Both the position numbers and the translations under genes were made by a program. DNA of 49,976 nucleotides, taken from sequence record DRR723986_3131, one strand, 5' to 3'. Below the pieces are notes generated by a model. That model had not been told where the DNA came from, did no database searches, and worked only from the letters and a program-made list of their open reading frames with translations. Position 1 is the stretch's first letter. Each line of letters opens with the position of its first letter. This document shows positions 3,886-49,976 of this stretch, piece after piece.

Positions 3886-3901
3886 CTTGCTTTATTACCC
3901 T

Positions 3902-4030: not shown

Positions 4031-4119
4031 CTCAGTTCACTGAGTTCTAACAGACTAATGAAAAACTGCTGAAGCTAGCTTTACTTTTTCTAAATCTAGT
4101 AAAATTCCGATCGATCAAA

Positions 4120-5925: not shown

Positions 5926-5983
5926 CGTACTCGAGCTGTTTCAAAAATCATTTTTAACCCAGATAACCAAGAAAAGCTGAAAG

Positions 5984-6398: not shown

Positions 6399-9005
6399 TT
6401 ACTCGGATTTAAGAATGACGGCTGGATTCGCTTTGACTATTTTCCAAATCTGCGAGCCAACAGTACCTGCGACTACCAGCAATAGAAGCACCAAACCAGT
6501 ACCTATTGGCAAAACGCCCACTCCAGAATGGAAAGCAAAAAAACTATCTAGAAAGTTAGAGATAATCAGGATAGAAAAAGCTCCACCTAATACTCCTGCA
6601 ATTCCCCAAATAATCAGGTAACGCTTGTACAATTTCACAGACAAATCTCCCATATCGGCTCCAAAAACCTTTCTGACACAGTAATCCTTGATGTGCGAAT
6701 TCATATTCAAGGAAACCAATCCAAAAAGCCCCAGCGCTGCCAATAGGACGGCAAGAATGGCCGAGAATAATAGAATATTCCTTACTCCCTCCACATCTGA
6801 AAATTCCCGCTCAAATACCTCGGTTTGCAATTTTCCCTCAAAAAGTCCTCTAGGAACTGTCTCATGCCAAATCTTTTTGACAGATGCCATAGTCGTCTCA
6901 GCACTTCCATCTGTCACTTGGAGGGTAAGGTAGTTAAATGTCGTGTCTGGAGAAGCTCTGATAACCATGGGGTCAATAGCACTTTGGAAGAAAATCGTAT
7001 GAAAATCCTCCACCACACCTACGACTGTATAGTTCACACTGTCGAGCGTTATCTTTTCGGATAGAGGAAATTCCAGTCCCAGTTGATCTAAGAAAGTTTG
7101 GTTCACAATAACCGATTCCTGCGTATCAGAAATTAAATCAGAATTGAACAAGCGGCCTTGTTTGAGCTGCAGACCCAGTAGTTCAGGATAATTAGCTTCT
7201 GCATTTAGTAGGCTTATTTCATATTTTTCTTGACCAAAATCCAACACTTCTTCCCGTATCCAATTCCCCACATAATCCTGACTTCCGCTAACTTCTGTCA
7301 CAGAAGCAAGTGCAGAAAGCTTGTTTTTGAGTGGCAAATAATCCTCCTGATTTGGCACATTCACGATGATTTTATCTGCACTAGCGTATCCCCAGTCCCT
7401 ATTCGAATTGATGTAGTTCGTCTGCACAAAAGCAATTCCGGCTACAATACTTATGATCGCCAAGGTAAATTGAAAAGTGAGCAATACACTGGTAAAAGTA
7501 CTTTTACTGCCTATTTTCTGATTGCCTTTTAGTATGTTGATAGGCTTAAAAGATGACACATAGATCGCTGGATAAAGACCGGAAATGAGGGTAATAGACA
7601 CTAACATACCACCCATAAACATCCAGATAAACGGATCTCTAAGCAGATCAATTTTCAGGTTCTTGGAGGCAATTTCATTAAAACCTGGAAGGAAAATAAA
7701 GCCAGCTAACAAACAACCCAAAATCATGGCAAATAAGCAGACCATCAGATTTTCGCTCAAAAATTGGAATACCAACTGGCTTCTTCTACTACCTATTACC
7801 TTTCGAATACCAATTTCCTTAAGTCTTTTGGAAGCCATTAACACCGAAATGTTGACGTAATTGAAAATTGCGAGAATAATAATGAATAACCCTATCGCAC
7901 CAAGCAGTATCTGTGGCCCCAGCCCTAAAAAATCTCTGACACCATTTTCAATTTCACCCACTTTATAAACCAAATCAGAGAACGCAACCAGTTCTAGTTT
8001 CTGATAGGGCTTTTCCGGATTGACTTGATTTTGAATCTTAGTCAAAGAAATAAGTCCTGACTCCATTTGTGCAATATCAGCTCCCTTCTCCACTTGGATA
8101 AAAGTCCATAATTCATCTCTCCAGCTATCTTTAAGCGAGATATCATCCGTAGAAACAGGATGCGTCTCAATATTAACCAAGAGGTCAAAGGTGAACATAT
8201 CCATATCATGCAGATCAGCCAACACTCCTCCGACTTTGTATAATTTCTCCTCCCCATTTGTCACCAAGGAAAGCTCCTGTCCTATCGGATGTGTATCACC
8301 AAAAAGTTTATCTGAAAGTTCATGGGTCAAAATCACTTGACTTGGATCATCCAATGCGCCCGGATATCCGTAATCCATTCGGTACACAAACATCTCCATA
8401 AATGTGGGATCTACATATAAGGAACGTTGATTGTAACTTTCATTCTTTTGAATCAAAATAGGAAAGTCGCGCATCACTTGAGCAGTCCGCTGAATCATGT
8501 TCAACTTATCAGGAATCATCTCTGCTAGTGGGCGTCCTACTGATCCATAAGTAACCAACCCATTCTCGCCTTCAGCGGTATAGGTCAGTTGATAAATCTC
8601 ATCCTTGTTAGGCTGGTGAAGGCCTTTAAACCAAATATTTGCTATAAACAAGTAAGCCACCATGCAGCATCCCACTGCAGCGGCAAGGCCAAACACAGAG
8701 ATGAATGTGGTTCCTTTTTGCTTAACTAGATTCCTCCAGCCAATTTTAAAGTAGTTCTTCAGCATAGCACCTTGATTATAGGATTGATAAGTTGAGTTGG
8801 ACTTTTTGATATTATTCCATCTGAAAAAGCTGAGTACATGGATAAAAAATCTAAAACGGGCGAAAGCGAGCCCCTTTTCTTCCAGATTCATGTAGAAAAT
8901 CTCATAAGCATCTCCTTGAATCTGCTCCAATCGACTGGGAGTGCAGTAGAACTCCAGAAATCGGTCAGGCCATTTGGGCGGAAAATGCTTCTGTTTAGTG
9001 TCCAT
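6399..9005 (-). CDS. MacB/FtsX-type ABC permease with N-terminal permease-prefix domain
   Basis: 'PPKWPDRFLEFYC...IQGD' prefix, then 'MLKNYFKIGWRNL', 'KEIGIRKVIG', terminal 'NPAVILKSE'. Confidence 0.92.
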   Translation of the reverse strand: MDTKQKHFPPKWPDRFLEFYCTPSRLEQIQGDAYEIFYMNLEEKGLAFARFRFFIHVLSFFRWNNIKKSNSTYQSYNQGAMLKNYFKIGWRNLVKQKGTTFISVFGLAAAVGCCMVAYLFIANIWFKGLHQPNKDEIYQLTYTAEGENGLVTYGSVGRPLAEMIPDKLNMIQRTAQVMRDFPILIQKNESYNQRSLYVDPTFMEMFVYRMDYGYPGALDDPSQVILTHELSDKLFGDTHPIGQELSLVTNGEEKLYKVGGVLADLHDMDMFTFDLLVNIETHPVSTDDISLKDSWRDELWTFIQVEKGADIAQMESGLISLTKIQNQVNPEKPYQKLELVAFSDLVYKVGEIENGVRDFLGLGPQILLGAIGLFIIILAIFNYVNISVLMASKRLKEIGIRKVIGSRRSQLVFQFLSENLMVCLFAMILGCLLAGFIFLPGFNEIASKNLKIDLLRDPFIWMFMGGMLVSITLISGLYPAIYVSSFKPINILKGNQKIGSKSTFTSVLLTFQFTLAIISIVAGIAFVQTNYINSNRDWGYASADKIIVNVPNQEDYLPLKNKLSALASVTEVSGSQDYVGNWIREEVLDFGQEKYEISLLNAEANYPELLGLQLKQGRLFNSDLISDTQESVIVNQTFLDQLGLEFPLSEKITLDSVNYTVVGVVEDFHTIFFQSAIDPMVIRASPDTTFNYLTLQVTDGSAETTMASVKKIWHETVPRGLFEGKLQTEVFEREFSDVEGVRNILLFSAILAVLLAALGLFGLVSLNMNSHIKDYCVRKVFGADMGDLSVKLYKRYLIIWGIAGVLGGAFSILIISNFLDSFFAFHSGVGVLPIGTGLVLLLLVVAGTVGSQIWKIVKANPAVILKSE

Positions 9006-9336
9006 AGGAAAAATCTAAAGCAAGCGGAGGAATCTGGTCATACATTTTATTTCGGAGAGTTTTCACTTCCTCAATAGCTGCTCGACCCGTAGCAGACAGC
9101 GTAAACAATCGTTTTCTCCTACCACCTCTTTCTTCAGTTGCCCCACCCATTTCTGATTTGAGAAATCCTTTATCCTCCAGACGATTCAAAACCGTATGAA
9201 TAGCCGAAATGTTAACCTTTCTTCCTGTCTGGTTTTTGATTTCCTCCAATACGGAAACACCATAAGCTTCCTGATCTAAAATCCCTACAGTCAAAAGAAT
9301 CAACTCTTCCAATTCACCCAAATGATAACCTTTCAT
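8995..9336 (-). CDS. PadR-family transcriptional regulator
   Basis: 'LGELEELILL', 'AYGVSV', 'LNRLEDKG', 'RGGRRKRLF'; overlaps the permease start. Confidence 0.92.
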   Translation of the reverse strand: MKGYHLGELEELILLTVGILDQEAYGVSVLEEIKNQTGRKVNISAIHTVLNRLEDKGFLKSEMGGATEERGGRRKRLFTLSATGRAAIEEVKTLRNKMYDQIPPLALDFSYGH

Positions 9337-9475: not shown

Positions 9476-11026
9476 TTAGTTTTTCTTTACGATCTCCTCT
9501 AATTCCTCCTTCATTTTTGCCATTATTTCAGCTTCCGAAGTAGATAGATCTTTCGTTTCTTTAGGATCAAGCTTAATATTGAACAGTTGATCTTCCTTGT
9601 CAAAACCTGTTTCAATAATCGGTCCCCAAGGCACCATGTCAGGCCCAGTATTTCCTGGAATGAATTTATAACCATCATTTCGGACATAAGCTAAATTGCT
9701 GAAAAGTGCTTCCTGTACTAAGCCATACCGACCTTGCCCCTCTTTTCCGATCAATACTTCCCAGTGGTTTTCTGTATCAATAGCCTGAGCAGAATCATAA
9801 GAAATATTATTCACTGCCGCGAAGGAAGCCAACAAATCCACCTGACTGAATAGTACATCCGATGTAGCCCCAGCCTTGACTGACTTTGGCCACTTTACTA
9901 TAAATGGCACACGGGTTCCAGCTTCGAACGCACTGTATTTTCCTCCTCTCAAATCTCCCGCAGCGTCGTGATCAGCGATCAATTCTCTCGCCTGATCCAC
10001 ATATCCGTCATCTAATACTGGTCCATTATCACTGGAGAAAATCACAATCGTATTTTCTTCCAAACCCTGCTCTTGCAGCAGTTTCATCAGCTCACCTACT
10101 GTCCAATCTAGCTGAACAATTACGTCGCCTCTTGGACCGAAATCAGTAGCTCCTTGGAAGCGCTCGTGAGCAATTCTAGGTACATGAATATCGTGGGTAG
10201 AAAAGTACATGAAGAATGGTTTATCGGATTCTGCTTTGATAAAATCCGTAGCCTTATCTACAAAAGTCTGTGCAAAGTCCTCATCTCGCCACATAGCTGC
10301 TTCCCCACCGGTCTGATAACCAATACGGCTGACTCCATTCACAATGCTATGATTGTGCCCATGTGACCACATCATTTTCAAGAGCTCAGGATTATCCTTA
10401 CCTGTAGGGCCGTCTCCTATTTTCTCACGGTAATTTACGGAAATCGGGTCCGCTGGATCTAATCCAACAATATGGTGATCTTCTACAAATACCGTAGGAA
10501 CCCGATCTCCTGTAGCTGGGATAATAAAGGAATAGTCAAAACCTATTTCCAAGGGGCCAGGATTCAATTCCCCATTCCAATCAGGCCCTTCGTCACCACC
10601 AAGGCCAAGATGCCATTTCCCAATCGCAGCCGTTCTATAACCTGCTCGCTGAACGACTGAGGGTAATGTCTCGACCCCTGGCCGGATTAAAGCAGAAGCA
10701 TCTCCAGCTGCTACTCCTCGTCCTTTTGCTCGCCAAGCATACTCACCGGTAAGCAGGGAATAGCGAGATGGTGTGCAAGTAGCAGCTGACGCATAGGCAT
10801 TGGAAAATAGTAAGCCATCAGCAGCTAACTTATCGATATTTGGAGTAGGGATTTTACCTCCATAAACGGAAATATCCCCATACCCTACATCATCTGTATA
10901 GATAATTAGGATGTTTGGTTTATCTTCTGAAACCTCCTTCCTACTTGGCTTTCCGGCACAGGACACTAAAAGGGAAAACCCTACCAGGGATAGAAAAGAG
11001 AAGTGTTTTTTCAATAATGAATTCAT
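9476..11026 (-). CDS. Formylglycine-dependent (S1) sulfatase, lipoprotein
   Basis: 'PNILIIYTDD', Cys-type 'CTPSRYSLLTG', 'GKWHLG', 'SDNG'; lipobox LVSC. Confidence 0.95.
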   Translation of the reverse strand: MNSLLKKHFSFLSLVGFSLLVSCAGKPSRKEVSEDKPNILIIYTDDVGYGDISVYGGKIPTPNIDKLAADGLLFSNAYASAATCTPSRYSLLTGEYAWRAKGRGVAAGDASALIRPGVETLPSVVQRAGYRTAAIGKWHLGLGGDEGPDWNGELNPGPLEIGFDYSFIIPATGDRVPTVFVEDHHIVGLDPADPISVNYREKIGDGPTGKDNPELLKMMWSHGHNHSIVNGVSRIGYQTGGEAAMWRDEDFAQTFVDKATDFIKAESDKPFFMYFSTHDIHVPRIAHERFQGATDFGPRGDVIVQLDWTVGELMKLLQEQGLEENTIVIFSSDNGPVLDDGYVDQARELIADHDAAGDLRGGKYSAFEAGTRVPFIVKWPKSVKAGATSDVLFSQVDLLASFAAVNNISYDSAQAIDTENHWEVLIGKEGQGRYGLVQEALFSNLAYVRNDGYKFIPGNTGPDMVPWGPIIETGFDKEDQLFNIKLDPKETKDLSTSEAEIMAKMKEELEEIVKKN

Positions 11027-11052
11027 GAAATATGACGAATTAATTAGTAATG

Positions 11053-11081
11053 GATAAGGCCAGAACTAGTCTGGCCTTATC
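11053..11081. terminator. Intergenic hairpin between susD and sulfatase
   Basis: GATAAGGCCAGA/TCTGGCCTTATC perfect 12-bp stem; weak U-tail, so could be an mRNA stabiliser or attenuator. Confidence 0.5.
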
Positions 11082-11108
11082 ATTTTAGCTATTCTGGTTG
11101 ATATGAAA

Positions 11109-12893
11109 TCAATAACCAGGGTTTTGTTTTAAGTTTGGATTATCAGCTATCCGGCCAAGAGAAATTGGCAAATAATATCTCTCAGGTCCAAATACGCGAC
11201 TTACACCTTCAGCATTTTTCAGGGTAATCACATATTTATCATTGTCCAAATCGTAATTAAATACCAATCCTTTTGTTCTTACATTATCCAAGTATTGAGG
11301 TGCGATTCTCCAGCGGATCAAATCCCAGAATCTTTGGCTTTCAAATGCCAACTCCACTTGTCTTTCCTGTCTGATATTTGCTTCGGTAGCTTCTGCCAAT
11401 GTAGGCATTCCTGCTCTTTCTCTCAACTCATTCAAGGCTACTAATGCTTCGCCTGTCTTACCTAAATAGAAGGCTGCTTCCGCATAATTAAGAAGTGTCT
11501 CAGCATATCTAAATACATAGAAATCCTGTCCAGATCTCCCTGAAAGAGGCTCAAGGTTCGTTTCATCTAGTTTTTTACGAAGAAGTAAGGCTGTGTTTCT
11601 TACATTTCGAGGATGACAGGATGCAGGCCACACTTCTCCATTTCTATCAAATGTGCCACTGGTAGCAGATACTCTTTCTCCCTCATCATTAGTATAGATA
11701 GTGCTGGAATGAAAATAAACCAGGCCACCTTGCCACGTAGATTCAGGATAGAATACAGAAGCTCTGAACCTTGGATCTCTTTTCCCAAAGAAGTCTTCGA
11801 TTTCCCAAGAATTAGATGCAATCAAATCATCTCTTGAAATATCAGTCCCTTTTCTTCCATCCACAAAGTCAAAAAGCTCAACAAAATCATAGAGAACAGG
11901 GAAATTTGAATTCCAAGTAGCTGCAAATCCAGCTGGAGTAGCAATATTATCCAAGGAGTGACCTTTGACTATTGGCTCAAACACTTCCGCAAAAATCACC
12001 TCATCATTTCCTTCGTCCAGGAAAAGCTGACTAAAATTCACCATCTTATCCTCATACTTCTCATAAAGAGAAAACATCCCAGACTCAATGATCTCTTTTG
12101 AAGCATTATAAGATTTTTGATAAAAATCCTGAGTACTTCCAGATGAAATCCCCACTAAACCATCCGCCTGAACGGTACTGAAATTCCCAATACTTGCTGC
12201 GTATAAGGATGCTCTAGACAAAAGCGCCAGTGCTGTATATTTATCTGCTCTTCCAGCTGCACCAGTTTTTTGATCTGGCATGGTGGCGATGATTTCATCA
12301 AGTTCTGTCACGATAAAGTTATAAATCTCCTCTTCAGTAGCCCGTGACGGATACAATTCGCTCTCAGGATCATCTACACTTTGTACTTTGGTGATTAGAG
12401 GCACCCCTCCGAATCTAATGACCATTTGAAAATAAGCATATGCTCTCAGGAATCTTGCCTCATTCATTTTTTGCAAAATGTAGGAATCATCCAAGGATTT
12501 ACTTGACCCGATATTTTCCAATAAATAGTTAATATCCCTGATCGAATTATACCCCCAATAATCGAGAGGTCCGGCACCGGATGCAGCAGTATATGATCTA
12601 CTGTAAGTGGTATTTGGCGTTTGCCAGTTGGCGAAATTAATGTGCTCAGCGCCAGCTGCTGGTATCATACCCATATTATTCTGAGCCTCACCACCTACAT
12701 CGATGAACAGCATGTCGGAGTACACGTTGGCTAGATAAGCTTCAGTTAGATTTTCATCCTCGAAAACGACGCCTTCAGAAATAAAATCAGGGGTTTTTGT
12801 AAGTTGTTCTTCACATGATGCAAAAACGATCGTCAGCAGCATCAATAGTAATATTCTTGATTTCATGATTATCATGTTTTTTCGTTTTAACAT
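11109..12893 (-). CDS. susD: RagB/SusD-family outer-membrane lipoprotein
   Basis: Lipobox FASC, 'EARFLRAYAYF', 'FGGVPL', 'RYAETLLNYAEA', 'ERQVELAFE', 'QNPGY'. True start likely 12866-12875. Confidence 0.95.
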   Translation of the reverse strand: MLKRKNMIIMKSRILLLMLLTIVFASCEEQLTKTPDFISEGVVFEDENLTEAYLANVYSDMLFIDVGGEAQNNMGMIPAAGAEHINFANWQTPNTTYSRSYTAASGAGPLDYWGYNSIRDINYLLENIGSSKSLDDSYILQKMNEARFLRAYAYFQMVIRFGGVPLITKVQSVDDPESELYPSRATEEEIYNFIVTELDEIIATMPDQKTGAAGRADKYTALALLSRASLYAASIGNFSTVQADGLVGISSGSTQDFYQKSYNASKEIIESGMFSLYEKYEDKMVNFSQLFLDEGNDEVIFAEVFEPIVKGHSLDNIATPAGFAATWNSNFPVLYDFVELFDFVDGRKGTDISRDDLIASNSWEIEDFFGKRDPRFRASVFYPESTWQGGLVYFHSSTIYTNDEGERVSATSGTFDRNGEVWPASCHPRNVRNTALLLRKKLDETNLEPLSGRSGQDFYVFRYAETLLNYAEAAFYLGKTGEALVALNELRERAGMPTLAEATEANIRQERQVELAFESQRFWDLIRWRIAPQYLDNVRTKGLVFNYDLDNDKYVITLKNAEGVSRVFGPERYYLPISLGRIADNPNLKQNPGY

Positions 12894-15800
12894 TTAAAAT
12901 CCAAGTTGTACGCCAAATGACATCGTTCTCAACAGAGGCAATTTGAAGGCATTTGCACTTGTTGCTTCTTCAGGATCAACGGCATCTTTGAAGATACCCA
13001 TGTTATTAAATGACAGTAAATTATCGCCGGACATGTAGACATTGGCATTGCTCAACCCGATTTTAGACAGAAAACTACTTGGTAAGGAGTATGAAACTGT
13101 AGCAGTTTTCAATCTTAGGTAAGTTCCGTTGTACATCCAGAAATCAGAGTTAATGTTATTCCAAGTTCTTGTACCATTTCTCTCGTATGCTGGTAGTTGC
13201 GCATTAGGATTTGAACCAATACCAGGGTTATTTGGATCCTGAGTCCAAGTATATTGCTCGTGCAATTCAAGTGGGACCTGCTCATTATTAAATGCTCCTC
13301 TATAGAGCCCTGATATATTTACATTAAACCTGGTTCCACCTTGCCAAAGCATAGCAAGACTAAAGCCTCTATAAGACAATCTTGGAGCTAGTGAATAAGT
13401 GATATCAGGATTAGTTCCATACCCAATCTGGTATCTATCAGCTCTATTTATGACACCATCTTCGTTGATATCTACATATCTGATATCACCTGGCTTTGGT
13501 CTACCATTGATGTCTTCGATTGTATATTGCTCCAAATACTGATCTACCTCAGCTTGGGTATTGAATAGTCCATCTGTTTTGTATCCGTAGGTAATATTCA
13601 CCCATCTCCCACTTAGCTGATCAAACTCGACCTGAATAGGGTCCTCAAAATTGATGTCTTCTTCATAATTCTCATAGCGCTCTCTTGCATAGGCAACGCC
13701 AGCTGTGATTTCGTATTTGAACTCACCAAAAGTTCCTTGGTTGCCTAAAGAAAGTTCAAAACCTCTGTTACTTCTAGAATCCAAGTTCACCTGAGGTAAA
13801 GCAGCTCCGAAAGTAGAAGGAAGAGATTCCAATGGAGTTCTTAGCAATCCATCTCTGTATCTGTAGAACACATCCAATGTAGAGTACAACTTCCCGTTAA
13901 ACATAGTCAAGTCTATACCTGCATTGTATAGGGTAGTGGACTCCCAAGTAATGTCTGGATTAACCAAACCCGTATTGCTAATGATCGCAGTAGGAGATCC
14001 GTCTAAGTAATAAACAGCTCCTGATGACTCTTCAAATCCTGATAGGAAGTTGAAGGAAGTATTCCCTACGTTGCTATCTACACCGGTTTGGCTATATGAC
14101 AAACGAAGTTTGAACTGATCCAACACGTCTGAAGTAGCCAAGAAATCTTCTCTGGCGATATTCCATCCGACTGATACTGATGGAAAATATCCCCATGCGT
14201 TATTACCAAATTTAGAGCTGGCATCTGCACGAAGAGTCGCTTCCAGCAAATACTTTTCGTCATATGCGTAGTTGAATCTACCTGCAAAACTTACTCTGGT
14301 ATATTGAATATCCCTACCCGTACCCGAACTTCTGGTCAATTCATTTGTACCTCCAATTTGTGGAACTTCAGTCGACAGCAAATCAGTTCTGGTCACAGTA
14401 AGTTGACGATAAGTATTATCTTCTTTCTCTCCAAAGAATAAAAATCCAAACTCATGTTTGTCAACAGCCTTTTCGTAGGTAGCATAACCTCTTGAAAGTA
14501 TTCTGTTAATTGGATCACTGAAACTACCGTAGGATCTAGAAAAAGAATTCCCTAGAAGAGAAGCTTCTAAAGTATACCCATCAAAATCTTCGGTGACAGC
14601 GTTTGGATCATACGACCATACATCATAAGGTGTAGCCAAAGCCGCTTCTTGTAAGTTTCTTGCTCTTACGTTTACTTTACCGCCTACGCTCAGACCTTTT
14701 ACAAATGGTAGTGAATACTTCAATTCTGCAGAACCAGTCAACGTATGTTGGTAGCTTTTACTGTATCCGGCAAATTTCTGATTGATTCTAGCTACTGGAG
14801 ATCGACCGCTAAAGCCTGAATAAGGCGCTCTGTCGGGATCTGGCAAGTCTGGGTTGAATAGAGGCTGGGATGTCTGAAGATCATTCCAGATGGTGGATGG
14901 ATCAATAATTGAATAATCCTTATCCTCTTTGATATATTGACCATTTAATATCAAAACAATGTTTTTGGACAAATCAATATCCATGTTATTGGTCAAAGTC
15001 AATTTCTTATAATCATAATCTCCTTTGAAAATCCCGGATTGACTGGTATATCCTACAGATGAATAATATCTGATTTTCTCACTGCCTCCTCTGAAGCTCA
15101 AATTATGACTCATCAATGGAGAACCTGTATCCTTCAATACTGCATCTACCCAATCATAGCTAGGAAGCTCCCCAGACTCGTATTGATTAAGTTTTTCCTC
15201 AGTAAATAATGTACCGTAGCTGATTGGCTGATCTGGTTTAAGAGGATCGTATTGACCATTAAATACTGCATCTCTCCCAAGTTGAATAAATCCAGCCGCA
15301 TCAACCTGCTTGGCAAAAGTCAATCTTTTCTGAGTAGCCACATATCCGTGATAATTCACAGACATCGAACCAGCCTTACCTCTTTTAGTAGTGACCAGAA
15401 TAACACCGTTACCAGCTCTAGCACCATAAATAGCCGCAGATGCATCTTTCAACACTGTCACAGTTTCGATGTCATTTGGATCTATACGATCTAAAAATGA
15501 CTCAATTCCGTCTACAATTACCAGTGGATTTCCAAAGCCTCGAATACTCAAAGTGGCATTGTCTTCACCTGGAAGACCAGGATTTTGATTGGAGATCAAA
15601 CCTGGAACCTGGCCGATCAAAAGACCTTTAACGTTCGTCGCAGGAGTTTGAACAAGCCTATCGGCTTTCAAGTCAGTCACAGATCCAGTCAGGTTACTTT
15701 TCTTCTGAGTACCATAGGCTACTACTACGACCTCATCCAAATCTCCTACATCATCCTGCAAAAACACGTCAATGAAGCTTCTACCTTCTACCGGTATAGT

Positions 15801-16157
15801 TTGAGCTTTGTAGCCAACGAAGGAATAAACCAACGAAGCACCTTCCTGAACTGTCAAGGTATATTTCCCATCAAGATCAGTGACTGTACCATTAGTGGTT
15901 CCGTATTCGATCACAGTGACTCCCGGAATCGGGAATTCTGTCTCATCCTTCACCACCCCGGTAACTTGGATTTCTGTTTTCACAGCTGAAGCTCGCAATA
16001 CATTCCCTAGGGTAGATTCACTAGCACCGACTGTTCCTTTTCCTTCAAATAATTGCTGTTGCGCCGCTAATGGTCCCAAAATGGCACATTGCATTCCAAT
16101 GCCGATCAGGAAGGTTTTGGTCAGCGATTTAGCTAACAATGGTAATTTTATTTTCAT
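12894..16157 (-). CDS. susC: SusC/RagA TonB-dependent transporter
   Basis: CarboxypepD-reg-like N-domain, 'LDEVVVVAYG', 'LKDASAAIYGARAGNGVILVTTKRG', C-terminal Phe. Confidence 0.97.
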   Translation of the reverse strand: MKIKLPLLAKSLTKTFLIGIGMQCAILGPLAAQQQLFEGKGTVGASESTLGNVLRASAVKTEIQVTGVVKDETEFPIPGVTVIEYGTTNGTVTDLDGKYTLTVQEGASLVYSFVGYKAQTIPVEGRSFIDVFLQDDVGDLDEVVVVAYGTQKKSNLTGSVTDLKADRLVQTPATNVKGLLIGQVPGLISNQNPGLPGEDNATLSIRGFGNPLVIVDGIESFLDRIDPNDIETVTVLKDASAAIYGARAGNGVILVTTKRGKAGSMSVNYHGYVATQKRLTFAKQVDAAGFIQLGRDAVFNGQYDPLKPDQPISYGTLFTEEKLNQYESGELPSYDWVDAVLKDTGSPLMSHNLSFRGGSEKIRYYSSVGYTSQSGIFKGDYDYKKLTLTNNMDIDLSKNIVLILNGQYIKEDKDYSIIDPSTIWNDLQTSQPLFNPDLPDPDRAPYSGFSGRSPVARINQKFAGYSKSYQHTLTGSAELKYSLPFVKGLSVGGKVNVRARNLQEAALATPYDVWSYDPNAVTEDFDGYTLEASLLGNSFSRSYGSFSDPINRILSRGYATYEKAVDKHEFGFLFFGEKEDNTYRQLTVTRTDLLSTEVPQIGGTNELTRSSGTGRDIQYTRVSFAGRFNYAYDEKYLLEATLRADASSKFGNNAWGYFPSVSVGWNIAREDFLATSDVLDQFKLRLSYSQTGVDSNVGNTSFNFLSGFEESSGAVYYLDGSPTAIISNTGLVNPDITWESTTLYNAGIDLTMFNGKLYSTLDVFYRYRDGLLRTPLESLPSTFGAALPQVNLDSRSNRGFELSLGNQGTFGEFKYEITAGVAYARERYENYEEDINFEDPIQVEFDQLSGRWVNITYGYKTDGLFNTQAEVDQYLEQYTIEDINGRPKPGDIRYVDINEDGVINRADRYQIGYGTNPDITYSLAPRLSYRGFSLAMLWQGGTRFNVNISGLYRGAFNNEQVPLELHEQYTWTQDPNNPGIGSNPNAQLPAYERNGTRTWNNINSDFWMYNGTYLRLKTATVSYSLPSSFLSKIGLSNANVYMSGDNLLSFNNMGIFKDAVDPEEATSANAFKLPLLRTMSFGVQLGF

Positions 16158-16365
16158 ATTTCAGTTGATTTTATTGTATCAATTTTTAGTCATTTTATGT
16201 ATGAAGTATATAGTAATAGACATGATTGTTGATTCTGCATAGGCATATTTTGGATTTTGATTTAGGTGAATTTCATTGAATTAGATATCAATCTAGAAGT
16301 GCTCACTTCAATGAGCTATTCTCATGATTATTAAAAATTTAATAGAGAGAATAACATTTGTACTT

Positions 16366-16384
16366 TTGCACTAATCTAGTGCAA
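16366..16384. promoter_or_regulatory. Palindromic operator candidate TTGCACTA-atc-TAGTGCAA upstream of susC
   Basis: Perfect 8-bp arms about 210 nt upstream of the susC start; a half-site TAGTGCA recurs at 16646-16652. Confidence 0.5.
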
Positions 16385-16759
16385 TTGTTGAATTTTAAGG
16401 CAAACGTCCTAAAAAATTTATTAAAAAAATTAAAGAAGATTTATATTCTTTTTAAAATTAATACAGGAACCAAATATAATTTTACGGATTTTCATCCTTT
16501 ATACAGAATTAGGCCCTCCTAATTGGAATACCTTTAATGGTTTTTCTGCCCTTTACCCATTGGCCTTTACATTTCCTTATTTCTACCAATTCAACTCAGA
16601 ATTCTTTACACTAAGACTCATATTGCATTTAGATGTTATTCTAGATAGTGCATGGAAAATAGGTGGGTCAGCTACTAAAACACACGGATATCATCCCCCT
16701 TGGAAAAACCCGGAGTAATCAAAGCAACATCAACTACTATAAGCTGTTTCTATAAAAAG

Positions 16760-18397
16760 TTATTTGGCAAGAACCTGCTTTTCTTCCAGCAGTACTTTCT
16801 CCAATTTCTCATACTGCAAATCCTGCACAGCCACATCACCATCAATAGCCAGTGATGCCGCCGCTGCTGCAGATTGACCTAGAATCATAAAAACAGGCTC
16901 CATCCTGATAGAACCAAAGGCAGTATGTGAACTAGAAACACACACCGGAACGAGCAAATTAGAACATTCTTCTTTTTTCGGAACAAGTGTTCCATAGGAA
17001 ATCGAATAAGGGTTTTTCGGGTGAACTCCTATATCTCCTTCATTCTGCACATAGCCATCCAACGTCACAAATCGCTGAGCATTGTGCGAATCCAGTGAAT
17101 AGGATCCCATCCCCACAGGCTCCGGAACTTCCTTTGCTCCAAGTACATCATGCTCAGTCATCACATAGGCACCTATCATTCTTCGGGCTTCGCGCACATA
17201 GATCTGGTGAGGCCAGTTGTTATTATCGACAAATTCATCTTTTGCCAAACCCCAATTTGCCATCTCTGCTCTCACCGAATCTGGCACTTTTTCATTATGA
17301 GACATGAAGTAAAGTAAGCCTTGTTGGTAGTCGGTATGCTCCTTTAAGATTTGCTTTCTTTCAGCGTAACTCGCTTCTGGATAAGCATAGTTTTTCCCTA
17401 TATAATCTGTAGAAAATGGCCCATGATTATTGGTGTCCGTCTTCAAATTTGGAATTGGATCGTATTTATCAAAAGTTTCATCCCAACCAGCAGCATAGAC
17501 TCTAGCAAGCAATTCATAGCGTGCAGGATCATATCCTTCAGGTTTTGGGAAAGGAACACGATTGTCGGGGTGCCTACTCATCGCCAGACGATAAGTATAG
17601 GCCTGAAGACGTTTGTCACCTGATCCGTTTTCCCCCGGTGGATCTGCAGAGATCTCCGGCAATAAGCCGCTGGTGGAATCTCCGGGAATCATATAAGCAC
17701 TGATGTCATTTTTGAAATAGTGTCCGTGTTGATAAACACCCACCTGTACCCCGTTCCAGGTCTCGCCATAAGTATCATTTGATTCCCGTCCCACGTGGTA
17801 GCTAACTCCAGCTGCTGCCATTAGATCACCTTCGTAGGTTGCATCTATAAAAACTTTTCCCTGATAGATATGACCAGAAAGTGTTGAGATCTGCATGATT
17901 TTGCCATTTTCCAGTTTAACTCCAGCTTCTCGATCCAGCCATTCATCACGATGGATTTCCAAATCGTATTCCGAAACAAAATTCTCAAAGACCTGTTCGG
18001 CTACATGGGGTTCAAAAATCCACATAGTTCTATTCTCGCCATCCATCGCTGGCGTACCTTGACCTTTATTTCCGTATTCCTCTTTTTTCTGCCACTTCCA
18101 AGCCGAATCCTGCTGATAATGAAGGTAGATTCGATGATAAAACTCCCTAGCCAATCCTCCTATCACAGACTTATTTCCAGTATCCGTGAAACCTAGACCT
18201 CCGGAAGACAATCCTCCTAAATGCCTATCAGGAGAAACAACAATGACTGATTTGCCCATTTTTTTTGCCTGAACTGCAGCGGTAATCGCTGCCGAGGTCC
18301 CTCCATATATAATGATGTCAGCCTCAAACTCGGAAGTATTCTCAGGTTTGCAGGAAAATAGAATTAAGATGATAAGGAGGCTAGGTAAAAATTTCAT
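16760..18397 (-). CDS. FAD-dependent oxidoreductase (FAD_oxidored family), lipoprotein
   Basis: 'DIIIYGGTSA', 'HLGGLSSGGLG', 'FIDATYEGDL', 'YVREARR', 'SIRMEP'. Start set at MKFLP (lipobox LFSC). Confidence 0.9.
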   Translation of the reverse strand: MKFLPSLLIILILFSCKPENTSEFEADIIIYGGTSAAITAAVQAKKMGKSVIVVSPDRHLGGLSSGGLGFTDTGNKSVIGGLAREFYHRIYLHYQQDSAWKWQKKEEYGNKGQGTPAMDGENRTMWIFEPHVAEQVFENFVSEYDLEIHRDEWLDREAGVKLENGKIMQISTLSGHIYQGKVFIDATYEGDLMAAAGVSYHVGRESNDTYGETWNGVQVGVYQHGHYFKNDISAYMIPGDSTSGLLPEISADPPGENGSGDKRLQAYTYRLAMSRHPDNRVPFPKPEGYDPARYELLARVYAAGWDETFDKYDPIPNLKTDTNNHGPFSTDYIGKNYAYPEASYAERKQILKEHTDYQQGLLYFMSHNEKVPDSVRAEMANWGLAKDEFVDNNNWPHQIYVREARRMIGAYVMTEHDVLGAKEVPEPVGMGSYSLDSHNAQRFVTLDGYVQNEGDIGVHPKNPYSISYGTLVPKKEECSNLLVPVCVSSSHTAFGSIRMEPVFMILGQSAAAAASLAIDGDVAVQDLQYEKLEKVLLEEKQVLAK

Positions 18398-44748: not shown

Positions 44749-44859
44749 TATGTTTTCAATTGTCTAAGGATTGGGTATTTGAGGTGACCTAAAAGATATT
44801 CTAAAATTTAAAGATTATTTTGGCCAATAAATTCTACTAATCCTCATATTCACAGCTAC

Positions 44860-45363
44860 TTAATATTGGATCAAATTTAATAATGATAGTTTTTCCTTTA
44901 TTTCAACATTCTTTAATCCAAGAGTCTTTGCTATAAAGTCCGTGAAGAATATTTTATGACCGTCATTAAGAACAATTTCCGTGTAATTGTAAAAGAAGGT
45001 TGGTAGAGCATACGTCATATTTTCCTCGTCCCATTGTCCCTTATACCTAATGATTTTATTTATGTCTTTAAATCGAAATTCTTTTTCAAGCTTACCATTA
45101 TTCTCAATTCTAATTGTCTGCTTTGAATGGTTTACTATAATTTTTTTCCTTCTGTCATTCAGTTTGTATTGAAAATGTAAAACCAATTGAGGTAGTGCTA
45201 ATAATAGAAAACCAAACCCTAAAAAAAGTCCAATATCTTCTTTAGTTGCGAGAAAGTAAATAAATCCACTAAGTGCCCCAATGTGAAAAATAATTGATTT
45301 TCTAAAAACTCTCCATTCATTTTTTGGGTCAAAATCAAATTCTATTTTAAAGTCTTGCCCCAT
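44860..45363 (-). CDS. Cassette 6: hypothetical membrane protein (2 TM + PH-like domain)
   Basis: ATG 30 nt after box GTTATCCTCAAC; two hydrophobic segments. Confidence 0.7.
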   Translation of the reverse strand: MGQDFKIEFDFDPKNEWRVFRKSIIFHIGALSGFIYFLATKEDIGLFLGFGFLLLALPQLVLHFQYKLNDRRKKIIVNHSKQTIRIENNGKLEKEFRFKDINKIIRYKGQWDEENMTYALPTFFYNYTEIVLNDGHKIFFTDFIAKTLGLKNVEIKEKLSLLNLIQY

Positions 45364-45392
45364 GTTTTAATCGATTCTGTGTTTTTTTCAAA

Positions 45393-45617
45393 GTTGAGGA
45401 TAACGACCCAAGCTTAGCAAGCTCCGATAAAGCTAATGTATCTGCCGGTACTCCCAAAGTATCCAAGTAGCACAGTGCACATAAAGATGATAAATCCTTT
45501 GAGCTGAGCTTAGTAGAACGTACCGATTTTTACCAACCCCAGATTCTTGGTGAAGTTCGCACTGAAATCTGAAAAGTGGCAGTTGGCGCATTCCCCCTCA
45601 GCGATTGTTAGCAAATG
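45393..45617. repeat. attC-like site 5 (tandem, degenerate double site)
   Basis: Plus-strand boxes GTTGAGGATAAC (45393), ATTTTTACCAAC (45526), GTTAGCAAA (45607); stem AAGCTTAGC/GCTGAGCTT. Confidence 0.6.
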
Positions 45618-45619
45618 TA

Positions 45620-46009
45620 TTATGTCGCACGTTTTCTTTCCCGAATTTCGATTGCAATGAGTGTAAAGACAGTAGCGACCAATGGTATTAGGCCGAATGC
45701 TCTGTTCATTTCTCCCTTCGCTCCTTTCTCAAAAATCCCCAATATCATGGGTTCGCTACCAATCGCAACAGGCCCAAGTTCGTAAATTGCAATGTAGACG
45801 AGCATTCCAATTAACATGGTGTTCGCCGTTGTTAAATGTTTTCTAAAGAATAGGCTGAGTAGGATCCCAATAGTTAACTGGATTAAAAGAAATATTCCAA
45901 GTAAAAAAGGAGCCATACCTACTTCTCCACCTGGCAAGTTGGTCGTTCCAATCCAAATCATGAAGAATACAATTGTTAAGCCTGCTTGAAGAAAAATGTA
46001 TTTTATCAT
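45620..46009 (-). CDS. Cassette 5: hypothetical 4-TM membrane protein
   Basis: 129 aa, hydrophobic; flanked by exactly complementary GTTAGCAAA/TTTGCTAAC. Confidence 0.7.
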   Translation of the reverse strand: MIKYIFLQAGLTIVFFMIWIGTTNLPGGEVGMAPFLLGIFLLIQLTIGILLSLFFRKHLTTANTMLIGMLVYIAIYELGPVAIGSEPMILGIFEKGAKGEMNRAFGLIPLVATVFTLIAIEIRERKRAT

Positions 46010-46032
46010 GAGTTCAGTTCTCTGTGCAAGGA

Positions 46033-46095
46033 ATGTTTGCTAACTGTTTGCCTATAGTGCGTATCCCGCAGGGTATGCACTATAACCGTTGTGGC
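46033..46095. repeat. attC-like site 4
   Basis: TAAC...TATAGTGCGTATCC-cgca-GGGTATGCACTATA...GTTG; 14-bp stem with 2 G:T pairs on +. Confidence 0.8.
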
Positions 46096-46823
46096 TAGAT
46101 TTTTATTTTTAAATACTCTCCTATTTCAGAGAATCTATATTTCAATTCAATTATTGGTGTTAATGGTTTCATCACATGAGGTAGCCGGCATTCTTCTATT
46201 ATTTCAATGGAGTTCGGATAAAGGGCAAATTGATTTAGATTAAAGGTGTTGTCGCACTCATTATAATATTCAATCGCAGAATCATATTCATCTTGAGTTA
46301 ATCCCCAATCAGAGTCGTTAAGAACATCTTTAAGTTCAAGGCTTGCTTCATTATACTGCTCCTTTTTGTCTTTGAAAACCATTTCCCTGAATAACCCTGT
46401 AGTGTCAACAATCGAGTTAATATCAAGCCATTTTCCCGTTTGTGTCGAATAATTGAAATAATCTGTCCAACTAGTGCAATACGCTCCACAACCTTCGGCA
46501 CTTACGTTGATTGATAGAATTCCATTTTGATTGTAAGTAACTTGAAAGCCAAGAAAAACAATTTGGTCTCCTGCCCATCTTGTCAGAGTCGAATCAAGAT
46601 TGTCCGTTGGATATTCGTTGTCTGTAAAGCGATTCTTTAGGTCGGTATTTATCAATGAGTCTACTTTCTTATTACCTGAACTAATAATTGGAAAATTCAT
46701 CTTGTCAGATTGAATATCCTTAAATCGCTCACTTTTCTCAAGTCGAAATGTGTCGATTTGAACGCTTTGTCCAAAGGCAATTGTTCCTATGAACAACAAT
46801 ATTATCGTTAGGATTCTCTTCAT
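46095..46823 (-). CDS. Cassette 4: secreted protein, DUF4163/DUF3298 (PdaC/RsiV-like)
   Basis: Signal peptide MKRILTIILLF; 'VTYNQNGILSINVSAEGCGAY...YFNYSTQTG'. Start moved to ATG 46823. Confidence 0.6.
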   Translation of the reverse strand: MKRILTIILLFIGTIAFGQSVQIDTFRLEKSERFKDIQSDKMNFPIISSGNKKVDSLINTDLKNRFTDNEYPTDNLDSTLTRWAGDQIVFLGFQVTYNQNGILSINVSAEGCGAYCTSWTDYFNYSTQTGKWLDINSIVDTTGLFREMVFKDKKEQYNEASLELKDVLNDSDWGLTQDEYDSAIEYYNECDNTFNLNQFALYPNSIEIIEECRLPHVMKPLTPIIELKYRFSEIGEYLKIKI

Positions 46824-46863
46824 TTTCTTATGGAACAAAATGGTGCGGGTATCCATTTTTTTT

Positions 46864-46930
46864 ATGCACGCCAACGTTTGGCTATGAGCAGTAGCGTCTC
46901 ACGGGCGCTATTGCTTATAGGTTTTGTGCA
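46864..46930. repeat. attC-like site 3
   Basis: CAAC...CTATGAGCAGTAGCGTC-tcacg-GGCGCTATTGCTTATAG; 17-bp stem with 3 G:T pairs on +. Confidence 0.8.
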
Positions 46931-47493
46931 ACGTATTTTTTTGCTTCTTTTAATCCTTTCTCATATTCTTTACCGTCACGATTTTCGTCTATTACAGTAA
47001 TCCTCAAGTCAATTAATTCACCGTTATCCTTTAAAAAGAAAAATTTATAGTCTACCACTCCTGTTAAAATCATTGATACAAGAACTCCTTTCTCGTCAGT
47101 GGGAGAGATGTTAGGGTATTCATTAAATGCGATTACTTTTTTAAAATCATTGGTATTTGCTTGGTAGATGTATAGGTTATATGTTTCATTTGCTCTCGCA
47201 CCACTCCCTTGGTAAATGAGAATATCGTTGAATCCGTCAGAGTTCATGTCTTCAAACCGATTTTCAAAATACCCGTTGTAAATAGAAATAGAATCTTTTA
47301 TGATCTCTTGTCCGTTCCGGAATAAGATTATTTCAGTATTCGGTCTCGCCACGTCCATCTCATAATCCGAAAATACTTTAAGCTCAAATTGCGTTTCGCT
47401 CATCGTCCACTTAACTACGTTAATATCCTTTTGTGCATAGCAAGCAACACCTATTAAAATAAGAATTAATGACATAGATATTTTTTTGGTCAT
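46915..47493 (-). CDS. Cassette 3: secreted XAC2610-related protein
   Basis: Signal peptide; 'FEDMNSDGFNDILI...GARANETYNLYIY' Ca-binding-like motif. Start moved to ATG 47493; stop lies inside attC3. Confidence 0.55.
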   Translation of the reverse strand: MTKKISMSLILILIGVACYAQKDINVVKWTMSETQFELKVFSDYEMDVARPNTEIILFRNGQEIIKDSISIYNGYFENRFEDMNSDGFNDILIYQGSGARANETYNLYIYQANTNDFKKVIAFNEYPNISPTDEKGVLVSMILTGVVDYKFFFLKDNGELIDLRITVIDENRDGKEYEKGLKEAKKYVAQNL

Positions 47494-47559
47494 ATGCTCC
47501 AACGCTCTTCTTATGCGTATTGTCCTGAAGGGAATTGCGTATTGGTCTTCTTGCCCCAT
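47492..47559. repeat. attC-like site 2
   Basis: CAAC...TATGCG(t)ATT(g)TCC-tgaa-GGGAATTGCGTA...CTTGCC; 3 G:T pairs and two extrahelical bases on +. Confidence 0.7.
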
Positions 47560-47564
47560 GATTC

Positions 47565-48221
47565 TCATTTCATCTCTATTCTTTTTGGAGTCACTGCTCC
47601 ATCGGCAGAACGAAAATCGAATGTTACCAGATTTTCATTTTTTTCAATGTTTTCGAATAAATCTGTCAATCTCAAAACTTGATTCTCACTTATAGAATTA
47701 TCAATTTGTTTAGGTGCAAATTCAAGTATATTTTTTTTATCTGTCAAATGATCTAATAAAACTAAAGAAGTGAATGTACTGTCGGAAAAATAAAGCAAGT
47801 AGTCTTTCTCTATGTCGCCCCAAACAAATTGCTCATGGGGGATTCTCTTTATTTCCTTTCCTATTTCTTTGTTTATAAAAACCATATCTGGTGATGCACA
47901 ACATCCACTAATCCATTCGTACTGAAACAAGAGGTAGTTTTTGTACTCTTTCAAAAAACCAAGGCCTGCTCTTTGACAACCATATACCGTTTCATTTTCA
48001 CAAGATTTGAGAATCACTTTTTCCTTATTCTCAAATGTCAACCAAGAAGAATCACAGTTCCATTGCCAATAAAGTCGAGAGCCATTTTGAAAATTTTGAA
48101 TTTCACATTTATATCGGTTCTCTTCCACAATTTCCATACTGTCACAAGCGCACTCTAACTGTTGCGAAAACATTTGGAAGCTTGTTAGAAATAAAGCCAA
48201 AATAAAGATTGTCCTTTTCAT
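47565..48221 (-). CDS. Cassette 2: Cys-rich secreted hypothetical protein
   Basis: Signal peptide MKRTIFILALF; 'LYWQWNCDSSWLTFEN', 'SGCC'. Start moved to ATG 48221. Confidence 0.7.
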   Translation of the reverse strand: MKRTIFILALFLTSFQMFSQQLECACDSMEIVEENRYKCEIQNFQNGSRLYWQWNCDSSWLTFENKEKVILKSCENETVYGCQRAGLGFLKEYKNYLLFQYEWISGCCASPDMVFINKEIGKEIKRIPHEQFVWGDIEKDYLLYFSDSTFTSLVLLDHLTDKKNILEFAPKQIDNSISENQVLRLTDLFENIEKNENLVTFDFRSADGAVTPKRIEMK

Positions 48222-48225
48222 TTTA

Positions 48226-48365
48226 ATGTTTGGCAACGGTTTCGGGCTTGGCGCTCGGGCGGGTTTCGGAGCACAAAACTGTCAACCTGCACTTAACTTG
48301 AATAGAAGTAGAAAGCTCCAAGTTTCAACTTCACCCCGTCTGACGCAAAACCCGTGTTGGGGCAT
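48226..48365. repeat. attC-like site 1 (long, 140 bp)
   Basis: CAAC...CGGGCTTGGCG-c-TCGGGCGGG ... CCCGTCTGA-CGC-AAAACCCG-t-GTTG; G:T pairs on +, long variable centre. Confidence 0.8.
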
Positions 48366-48371
48366 CGTTTT

Positions 48372-49808
48372 TTATTTGTTCATTTTAATTACTCCTGCAA
48401 ATGTTGCAGCCCAAATAATTCCATTTTTGTCCTTTGTTACCTTCATTACATGAATGCTAGGAACTTCAGAGTTTTCGGGCGTATATGTTTCCCATTTATC
48501 ATTTTCTATATCGTAACGAATAAGTCCAACGCTATTTAATGCAATCCATAAAACTCCATTCTCTTCGTCAAGCAGGAAATCATTTATATCGTTCTTAGTG
48601 AATAGTTCGGAATTCTTTGGTCTAATAGAAGTCCATTCACCATTTGGTTTTAAAAGCCACATTCCTGCTTTTGTCTTGTCTTTACTGTAAAGGTCGAACC
48701 AAAAGTTACCCTTACTATCTTCAAATACTTGCGAGATTGAGCCTTTTTTTAATGGCGAGTCAGATTCGTTAAATTCAATCGTTTGGTCTTTATCAATTCT
48801 GATATTACCGTCAAATGTTCCAATCCATAAACGGTCTTGATTGTCAAGATAAACACCTGATATTTTATTGGAAGGAAGCGCTGAATTAGAGGTGTCAATT
48901 ACACTCCAATTTTCACCATCATACTTTGCCAAGCCATCCCATGAAGTCAAGAAAACATTGCCATAATTGTCTGAAAAGATTTTTCTTGGCCATTCTATAG
49001 GAGAATTGATTGAGTCATAAACAGTCCATTTATTCCCATCGAATTTATATGCGTCCCAACCTGCCGCTAACCAAATGTTGCCTTTACTGTCCGTTGCAGC
49101 ATGTCTTATTGAAGATGCTATGTTTTGGTTGTATTTGACTGGTTTAATAGCTGAATTTGTAACGTCAAAAATTTCCATTTTCTCATCAGTCATTCTTACA
49201 AGCCCATTATCTGTACCAATCCATATGTTGTTATTAGTTGAAATAACTGTTCTCGTCATATCCCATGGAAGGTCTGAGTTCGACTGAGATAAAACTGTCC
49301 ATTGAACAGACAAATCTTTTTCCTTTGAGCCTTTGATGTCTGGGGTGCCAACAGATTTAAAATTGGTGCTATTCTTAAAGTCAAATGAAACCCTTCTAAT
49401 TCCAAATTTTCCATCTTGAAAAACAAGTTCGAGAGAAACTGAGGCACTTTGAGCCTTATTGTCCTTCATGGAGGGAGTCCATTTAGGCATTGAATTAATT
49501 GCGTTTTGTAATCCAAGTTTTTCGGAAGACACATCTGTGCTGTTCTCAGAGCTTACGAGACATGAATTCCCTAATGTGTCGACTAAAATTTGAACTCTTA
49601 TTAACCCATTTAGTTTTTTGAGAGACTTCTGGTTCAAACCGCTTAGTATGCTCTCAACAGCATCTTGAGGAACTTCAGCTTTTGGTTCACCACAATCAAG
49701 ACAAAAACGGCTCAATTTACACTCATCATATTTTTCAGGATAAAGATGTTGTCCAAATACTGTTTGTACCGTCAAAAAAAGTAATCCGATTAGGAATGTA
49801 TGCTTCAT
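48372..49808 (-). CDS. Cassette 1: secreted protein, TonB C-terminal-like domain + Reg_prop beta-propeller
   Basis: Signal peptide; 'MPKWTPSMKDNK' TonB_C-like; repeated 'D.KGNIW', 'LWIGT', 'NS.LPS' blades. Confidence 0.75.
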   Translation of the reverse strand: MKHTFLIGLLFLTVQTVFGQHLYPEKYDECKLSRFCLDCGEPKAEVPQDAVESILSGLNQKSLKKLNGLIRVQILVDTLGNSCLVSSENSTDVSSEKLGLQNAINSMPKWTPSMKDNKAQSASVSLELVFQDGKFGIRRVSFDFKNSTNFKSVGTPDIKGSKEKDLSVQWTVLSQSNSDLPWDMTRTVISTNNNIWIGTDNGLVRMTDEKMEIFDVTNSAIKPVKYNQNIASSIRHAATDSKGNIWLAAGWDAYKFDGNKWTVYDSINSPIEWPRKIFSDNYGNVFLTSWDGLAKYDGENWSVIDTSNSALPSNKISGVYLDNQDRLWIGTFDGNIRIDKDQTIEFNESDSPLKKGSISQVFEDSKGNFWFDLYSKDKTKAGMWLLKPNGEWTSIRPKNSELFTKNDINDFLLDEENGVLWIALNSVGLIRYDIENDKWETYTPENSEVPSIHVMKVTKDKNGIIWAATFAGVIKMNK

Positions 49809-49827
49809 GTAATTCGTTTGTTTTTAA

Positions 49828-49966
49828 ATGCCCCCCAACACTTATAAATACCCACCTCCGCCTTCCCCCCTCTAAACCTACTAAACTTTTCTAAATCCCA
49901 CATCACCCTTTAGAGTGAATAAACCCACTTTATCCGACAACAAACGGATACTATCGAATACAAACG
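49828..49966 (-). promoter_or_regulatory. attI-like primary site and upstream direct repeats
   Basis: Minus-strand TATTTATAAGT|GTTGGGGGGCAT has no preceding palindrome; direct repeats CGACAACAAACG (49935) and CGAATACAAACG (49955). Confidence 0.55.
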
Positions 49967-49976
49967 ACTAGCTACC

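Follow-up and report, generated by a model that had tools for sequence, protein, structure and literature searches.

Own-end complementarity of cassette boxes in a probable integron-type array of Algoriphagus

The minus strand of a 49,976-nucleotide stretch of DNA from sequence record DRR723986_3131 (the 50-kb window, whose positions serve as coordinates throughout) carries at 44837-49976 an attI-like platform followed by six gene cassettes with attC-like hairpins between them. This region is very probably an integron-type cassette array in an Algoriphagus chromosome (Bacteroidota, Cytophagales), and the likely enzyme is an IntI-like recombinase encoded elsewhere. Start boxes of the cassettes complement their own end boxes, and this footprint is good positive evidence that the spacers are real attC sites and the genes between them mobile cassettes. 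The footprint as such is textbook integron biology and not new: Hall and Stokes are said to have described in the 1990s that a cassette starts with bases of its own core site. The setting is what deserves attention. Integron integrases are defined by an additional domain, which holds flipped-out bases of the folded attC. Here, a genus with arrays that turn over and a conserved attI has no canonical integrase in 123 genomes, and an IntI-like enzyme lacking the additional domain stands in the integrase's place.

The evidence consists of the boxes, the hairpins, breaks in homology that follow whole units, the turnover of cassettes among strains that are nearly identical, and recombinase genes that lie adjacent to an attI and an array. 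From it we infer excised circles, a cut at G|TT and folding as a single strand. Each cassette would comprise one or a few promoterless genes and, behind them, an imperfect hairpin similar to attC, which has ...AAC at its 5' boundary and GTT... at its 3' boundary. Cassettes would move as units cut inside the GTT, so that the bases past each GTT in the row belong to the next cassette. The cassette's own GTT-side box would sit at its start and, in the circle, pair with the end box over nine base pairs. The array would be attached at an attI-like site upstream of the housekeeping gene ssb, with no integrase beside it, and the IntI-like recombinase would act in trans on this ssb-side array as a second attachment site.

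Complementarity of the cassette boxes

The initial annotation of the window had claimed that cassette start boxes complement the end boxes of the same cassettes, and all the boxes it quoted were found in the sequence at the places given. In cassette 1, the start GTTGGGG (its G at 49839) and the end CCCCAAC (48356-48362) agree at seven of seven positions, and in cassette 5 GTTAGCAAA and TTTGCTAAC agree at nine of nine. Cassette 6 reaches 8/10 (GTTATCCTCA and CTAATCCTCA, the latter at 44837-44846), with TAG in place of AAC, and cassette 2 reaches 5/6 (GTTGCC and CTTGCC), with AAG in place of AAC. Cassettes 3 and 4, described as weak from the outset, share 0/7 and 2/7 positions beyond the GTT. 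Taken alone, the window has own pairs that share 23 of 42 positions (seven bases after each GTT), a value reached by 14 of 720 permutations.

The comparison was extended to 24 cassettes from five genomes: five from the window, six from the ssb-side arrays of genome G001, 11 from recombinase-side arrays (G036, G026 and G001) and two from a Croceimicrobium metagenome-assembled genome. Own pairs agree at 128 of 168 positions, whereas permuted pairs average 57.1 (standard deviation 6.8) and none of 200,000 permutations reaches 128. The two ends of one linear spacer, which had been said not to match, agree at 55/168 positions, the chance level. Spacer 3 is a partial exception, as its TGCAC and GTGCA can pair out of register.

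Registers of the boxes were set by eye, with the boxes in view, for the 11 sites of the window and the G001 ssb arrays and for the site Cr2; the other 12 were set by hairpin energy alone. An automatic finder for AAC...GTT pairs, scoring the duplex energy of 24-nucleotide ends (background 22 of 2646 pairs at -10 kcal/mol in 88 kb), split cassettes when run without a coding filter; with the filter, five known sites still escaped it, and in one hairpin it settled on inner AAC/GTT pairs. Despite these misses and register slips, the own match was 6/7 or 7/7 in 12 of 21 and five of 11 of its sites. Because 12 registers had been set by eye and the finder slipped, a register-free test was added, in which the longest common word was sought between the 80 nucleotides preceding the first ATG and the 63 nucleotides round the last stop codon, the latter read as reverse complement. 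Over 26 gene units, delimited only by spacers of at least 60 nucleotides, the own sum is 204, compared with 160.6 +/- 6.2 after permutation, and none of 100,000 permutations reaches it.

Resolved by position after the G, the own match in the 24 cassettes amounts to 71-96% at positions 4-9, 29% and 4% at positions 10 and 11, and 62% at positions 12-13. As it is high at positions 4-9 and then falls, the paired box comprises nine base pairs, GTT plus six. Position 11 matches in 4% of both own and cross pairs; starts mostly have A there and reverse-complemented ends G, a fixed mismatch flanking the box.

Circularisation in silico

Each hairpin was joined in turn to all 24 start boxes, and the fold energies were compared. 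Hairpins are more stable with the start of their own cassette, at -21.9 kcal/mol on average, than with the one found next to them in the linear row, at -17.3 kcal/mol; the start boxes of other cassettes average -17.7 kcal/mol. The own start is the most stable of the 24 for 17 cassettes, cassette 5 of the window among them, and lies within the top three for 19.

Because GTT is invariant on both partners, the position of the cut inside it cannot be read from sequence, and G|TT was adopted from work on class 1 integrons. According to the passages of PMC3518468 on this point, their core sites follow the consensus RYYYAAC/GTTRRRY and are cut between G and TT.

Breaks in homology at the boxes

Likeness of the array to other genomes and to metagenome contigs stops at the GTT/AAC boxes. 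The nearest genome compared, G001, is 98% identical to the window until 48242 and then differs. About 700 bp further on, the body of attC1 returns in G001 behind a DMP19 family gene; its end box differs from that of the window and matches the start of that gene. In A. ratkowskyi (G291), cassette 1 with its hairpin is present at 95% identity from the G of its start GTT to the GTT past the hairpin (query 138-1742), preceded by another hairpin and not by a platform. Between the window, G001 and A. ratkowskyi, three different start boxes come after one and the same hairpin body. The attC1 body occurs in 33 of 123 genomes of the genus, a lower bound as two candidates per genome were scored, and most alignments run from AAC (query 1619) to GTT (query 1742).

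Copies of cassette 2 in G273 (95%) and G276 (88%) begin exactly at its GTT (query 1740; match 1740-2465), behind different sequence. In G273, cassette 2 is the first cassette after a platform. The sequence before it in G276 was considered as the 3' end of a recombinase gene and rejected, as a tblastn search of it gave no recombinase. Both cassette 1 and cassette 2, as well as the body of attC1, recur elsewhere with breaks at GTT/AAC, as independent mobile units bounded inside the GTT core would. Contigs from three other studies leave the likeness to the window at 49839, 48234/48236, 48358/48360 and 46826/46877; in a contig of X5 it ends at 49839. The hairpin body of attC3 recurs in G304, G325 and G273 at 92-94%, and no other copy of cassette 3 was found in the genomes and contigs compared. 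The homologue of cassette 5 in G281 (76%, query 3939-4365) corresponds to the cassette without its hairpin.

A more distant homologue of cassette 1 in Bizionia (62%) has both boxes changed together, to GTTAGGGCAC and GTGCCCTAAC, as compared with GTTGGGG.. and ..CCCCAAC in the window. The cassette 1 protein itself is spread across orders: its homologues in the Flavobacteriales Aureivirga and Croceimicrobium are 83% identical to it, those in Leeuwenhoekiella and Bizionia 60-62%. The earlier proposal that each linear spacer is a hybrid produced by crossover in the GTT fits every comparison made, whether of boxes, folds or break points.

Hairpins and cassettes of the array

The spacers of the window start with ...AAC and end with GTT.... 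Folded with DNA parameters, four of the five window spacers and all six of G001 form long imperfect hairpins closed near AAC/GTT, in which the attC layout R''-L''...L'-R' is seen. The bottom strand is the more stable one in nine of 11 hairpins (five window and six G001 sites). Rfam, which has no attC family, gave no match in the window at gathering thresholds, and MAFFT with RNAalifold returned no consensus structure for eight hairpins because their arms were misaligned. Many of the long hairpins, at 48237-48364 and in relatives, share an inner motif similar to GCTCCGAAAAC just before the 3' arm; conserved loop motifs are not known from canonical attC sites. Many cassettes have one hairpin body in common, whereas the six bases past AAC and past GTT are peculiar to the individual cassette, within which they complement each other. 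This combination of shared bodies and specific boxes would fit either bodies that evolve in concert through homologous exchange while their flanks stay unique, or exchange at both boxes.

All six cassettes lie on the minus strand, and five of their genes have no Pfam family above threshold. Cassette 1 (48237-49838) contains a gene at 48372-49808 for a protein of 478 residues with Reg_prop beta-propeller repeats (Pfam PF07494), and attC1 (48237-48364), whose 124-nucleotide hairpin body folds. Cassette 2 (47503-48236) consists of a gene without Pfam family (47565-48221) and attC2 (47503-47558), which ends in GGGGCAAG and not in ...AAC and forms no fold (-4.5 kcal/mol). The intact copies of this cassette in G273 and G276 have an end box TTTGGCAAC that is the complement of the start GTTGCCAAA at nine of nine positions, followed by a clean short hairpin; by comparison with them, spacer 2 of the window is a decayed copy. 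Cassette 3 (46875-47502) combines a gene without Pfam family (46915-47493) with attC3 (46875-46929), a hairpin by folding and of a short, 51-nucleotide type.

Cassette 4 (46044-46874) comprises a gene at 46095-46823 and attC4 (46044-46096), also of the short type, behind a 49-nucleotide leader other than the original. Copies of this gene in G332 and in a contig of X3, from a marine metagenome, stand behind GTTGTGGCTA, which complements the cassette's own end TAGCCACAAC at ten of ten positions; the window and G001 have GTTGGCGTGCAT there instead. Judged from these copies, cassette 4 of the window has lost its own leader. Cassette 5 (45404-46043) includes a gene for 129 residues (45620-46009, no Pfam family) and the long attC5 of about 210 nucleotides (45404-45615). 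Cassette 6 (44837-45403; gene 44860-45363) is the last of the array; its end box TGAGGATTAG (44837-44846) has lost the AAC, and the hairpin is lost as well. Window cassettes 2, 4 and 6, and perhaps 3, are decayed or rearranged and probably no longer mobile.

No intact attC follows cassette 6, and no AAC...GTT hairpin lies between 44837 and 38600. The genes beyond the array (44748-38618), coding for an OmdA-like protein, a GH97 protein and an M90 peptidase, have ordinary spacers; they were considered as further cassettes and rejected, as there are no hairpins between them.

The platform upstream of ssb

The attI-like platform (49839-49976, minus strand) is cut by the end of the window, so that about 137 non-coding nucleotides of it are seen; at the junction, the G of the GTT occupies position 49839. 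Relatives show the platform running on into the 5' region of an ssb gene in divergent orientation. Its ssb-proximal part is conserved across the genus, even where no array is attached, and the distal part (at least 100 of the 137 bases) is present in at least 21 of 123 genus genomes. Fifteen aligned copies of the platform lose their likeness right after the GTT, and a different cassette follows each of them, as expected of an attI site. Genome G001 has two whole copies and one cut copy upstream of divergent ssb genes, and G036 has two. The genes upstream of the array in G001 are ssb and a gene for a GH92 glycosidase.

The last 17-20 nucleotides of the ssb platform in sister species are the attI core that is found after the recombinase gene described below. 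Within 755 kb of loci, the 17-mer that ends the recombinase-side attI of G001 and G036 occurs elsewhere, with up to two mismatches, only at the ssb platform ends of G014, G029, G030 and G036.

Several observations concern rearrangement at this site. The ssb gene and the platform stand in tandem two to three times, each heading its own cassettes, in G001 (L014, G001:C3:515000-534999; copies at 5650-6087, about 8936-9211 and 13023-13520) and in G036 (L047; 11813-12184 and 17593-17964), and the likeness of the tandem copies starts exactly at the ssb stop codon. One G001 copy is cut and fused to a cassette start, with MBOAT and AlgX-like genes after the truncated platform. The first cassettes at the recombinase-side attI of G001 (L082, G001:C5, 1847-1054) and at one of its ssb platforms (L014, 5485-4778) have the same first 13 bases, GTTAGCGGTCAG.., and the same end box, and their genes differ in length.

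The IntI-like recombinase

No integrase is encoded in the 50-kb window or, in G001, in the 7 kb upstream of the homologous array. None of 123 Algoriphagus genomes, 82 of them at least 90% complete, contains a canonical IntI above the TIGR02249 cut-off. The candidate is a tyrosine recombinase of 454 residues that scores 216 bits on TIGR02249, against a cut-off of 265, and is encoded on another contig than the array or megabases away from it. Of the structures in the PDB, VchIntIA (2a3v), the integrase of a Vibrio integron, comes closest to it both in sequence and in fold. It retains the catalytic motifs and a C-terminal SPLD tail, and lacks 17 and 21 residues at the insertion places of canonical IntI from the same family. 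Its N-terminal extension of 175 residues is predicted to form two beta-beta-alpha-beta-beta-alpha modules (mean pLDDT 80.6, pTM 0.42), for which the ESM Atlas returned only unnamed Bacteroidota clusters (0.84-0.85). Source annotations call the protein XerD, tyrosine recombinase or, at times, integron integrase.

In G036, G026 and G001, a palindrome, a GTT and a codirectional cassette array come within about 35-95 nucleotides after the recombinase stop codon, and the own-end matches of these arrays are 6-7/7. Only about 25 of the 123 Algoriphagus genomes have a full-length orthologue; family-wide, the recombinase was found in 37 of 151 genomes and 32 of 132 genera. Strong hairpins within 1.5 kb lie downstream of the gene at 11 of 30 family loci and upstream at two of 30, many loci being cut by contig ends. 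At four of 11 loci, the first start box, 33-89 nucleotides past the recombinase stop, matches the end box of the first hairpin over 9-10 nucleotides. Adjacency and the shared attI point to this recombinase as the enzyme that probably acts, in trans, on the ssb-side array.

Other recombinases were seen in related settings. The ssb-side array of G332 holds a second tyrosine recombinase (L125, G332:C5:248800-256800; 3827-4633, reverse strand) that runs against the direction of the cassettes and is 33% identical to residues 189-452 of the IntI-like recombinase. In the Croceimicrobium genome (L077), a broken relative with two stop codons (17180-17998) is divergent from an array (9900-17100) that contains a cassette 1 homologue and one cassette with own boxes matching at nine of nine positions. 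In G181 (L054/L070; L098 = G181:C37), a genome of the wider family, a canonical IntI (327 bits) occurs together with a short version of the IntI-like recombinase, and hairpin-like sites lie just after the canonical gene.

Alternative explanations

Several points weigh against an active integron-type array served by this recombinase. Three of the six window cassettes match their own ends poorly (3, 4 and, with 4/7, cassette 2), two end boxes lack the AAC, and the cassette 1 homologues of Croceimicrobium and Aureivirga are without a clear GTT start or a clear attC. The attC calls were made from folding and boxes, and all data are assembled contigs, from whose sequence the circles are deduced. 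In addition, the ssb-side platform of the window and of G001 has diverged from the attI core by at least five mismatches in about 20 positions. That the genome of the window encodes the recombinase is deduced from G001 and G332, which are 98% alike to it in the shared parts. Finally, a full-length orthologue occurs in only five of the nine genomes with an ssb platform that were compared, the other four having only paralogues of 39-48%.

The array could instead be the dead relic of a canonical integrase that has since been lost from the genus, with the IntI-like recombinase playing no part in cassette movement and strain differences arising by homologous recombination at shared hairpins and platforms. 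Such an integrase exists in the wider family, where four of 201 genomes score above the TIGR02249 cut-off, and hairpin bodies repeated at 80-93% identity across genomes offer ample homology for exchange; the decay of several window cassettes and the four platform-bearing genomes without a full-length recombinase also agree with a relic. Yet strains that are 98% alike differ in their arrays although canonical IntI is found in none of the 123 genus genomes, and the exchange points lie at GTT/AAC and are not scattered over the shared hairpin bodies. Moreover, attI directly follows the recombinase stop in all three Algoriphagus loci read, and the same attI core is found at the second site. On balance, a relic of this kind is considered unlikely.

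Far less probable still are transposon-like elements with 9-bp terminal inverted repeats that are moved by a transposase, the hairpins being terminators or unrelated repeats. A start box that is the reverse complement of an end box is formally a terminal inverted repeat, but apart from GTT/AAC the boxes vary among cassettes (cross matches 34%). Being cassette-specific, they could not be read as sequence by any single protein. The mobile unit spans the whole hairpin to the next GTT and not merely to the end box, the sites show the attC layout, and neither a transposase nor a target-site duplication flanking the units was seen. Chance or composition, in the form of GTTRRRY-like boxes and A+T-rich spacers, would account for cross matches above 25%, for the silence of window cassettes 3 and 4 and for the modest p of about 0.02 in the window alone, but is refuted by the two permutation tests and further contradicted by the 9/9 and 10/10 matches in intact relatives of weak cassettes and by the covariation in the 62% homologue.

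Comparison with known integrons

In the literature outside subscription journals on integrons, attC sites and attC-site clusters that have no integron integrase (CALIN) in Algoriphagus, Cytophagales and Bacteroidota, and on SSB, no paper describing such a system was found. Bacteroidetes are portrayed in the IntegronFinder 2.0 paper (PMC9024848) as nearly devoid of complete integrons, with integrases without cassettes found earlier and one complete integron in Salinibacter. An integron-type array in Algoriphagus raises an evenly balanced question, namely whether Cyclobacteriaceae and some other Bacteroidota carry a separate class of integrons that current finders do not call complete. Such a class would have an integrase of the IntI branch with a duplicated N-terminal beta-alpha domain instead of the additional domain, an attI abutting the stop codon of its gene, cassette-specific boxes of nine base pairs and at least two attachment sites per genome, one of them before ssb; the window would then hold the ssb-side array. 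If the recombinase does move the cassettes, integrons are being sought with too narrow a definition, many arrays now classed as dead clusters may be live, and the structural rule for attC recognition needs a second solution.

Compared with class 1 integrons, the cassettes of the window show the familiar design, in which a gene is followed by an imperfect inverted repeat with ...AAC and GTT... at its boundaries, as in attC (the 59-base element). The crossover would likewise fall in the GTT core, leaving the bases of the next cassette after the GTT and restoring the full site only in the circle. Unlike in class 1 integrons, the paired box of the window type measures nine base pairs instead of seven, pairing is systematically absent at positions 10-11, an inner motif is common to many hairpin bodies, and no canonical integrase was found in the genus.

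CALIN are described as degraded integrons in PMC9024848, on IntegronFinder. With a row of five attC-like spacers, four of them folding, and no integrase near, the window falls under the definition of a CALIN (at least two attC sites, no integrase close by). In contrast to a degraded integron, it keeps a conserved attI-like head, present in at least 21 of 123 genomes of the genus, and the cassettes it carries change from strain to strain.

The sedentary chromosomal integrons of the Vibrio type have host-specific attC repeats. The array resembles them in its chromosomal location, in genes mostly of unknown function, in content that differs between close strains and in one hairpin family that is repeated over many cassettes and genomes of the genus (at least 33 of 123). 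It differs from them in being short, with six cassettes here and up to about seven in relatives, and in boxes that are cassette-specific beyond AAC/GTT despite the shared body.

In integrons of the Treponema denticola type, the integrase gene points the way its cassettes do. This arrangement is shared at the recombinase-side arrays of G036, G026 and G001, where gene, attI and cassettes have one common direction, whereas the broken relative in Croceimicrobium is divergent from its array. The recombinase of the Algoriphagus system further differs from the Treponema denticola type in having an N-terminal extension and no IntI insertions, and in remaining below the cut-off for canonical integrases (216 versus 265 bits).

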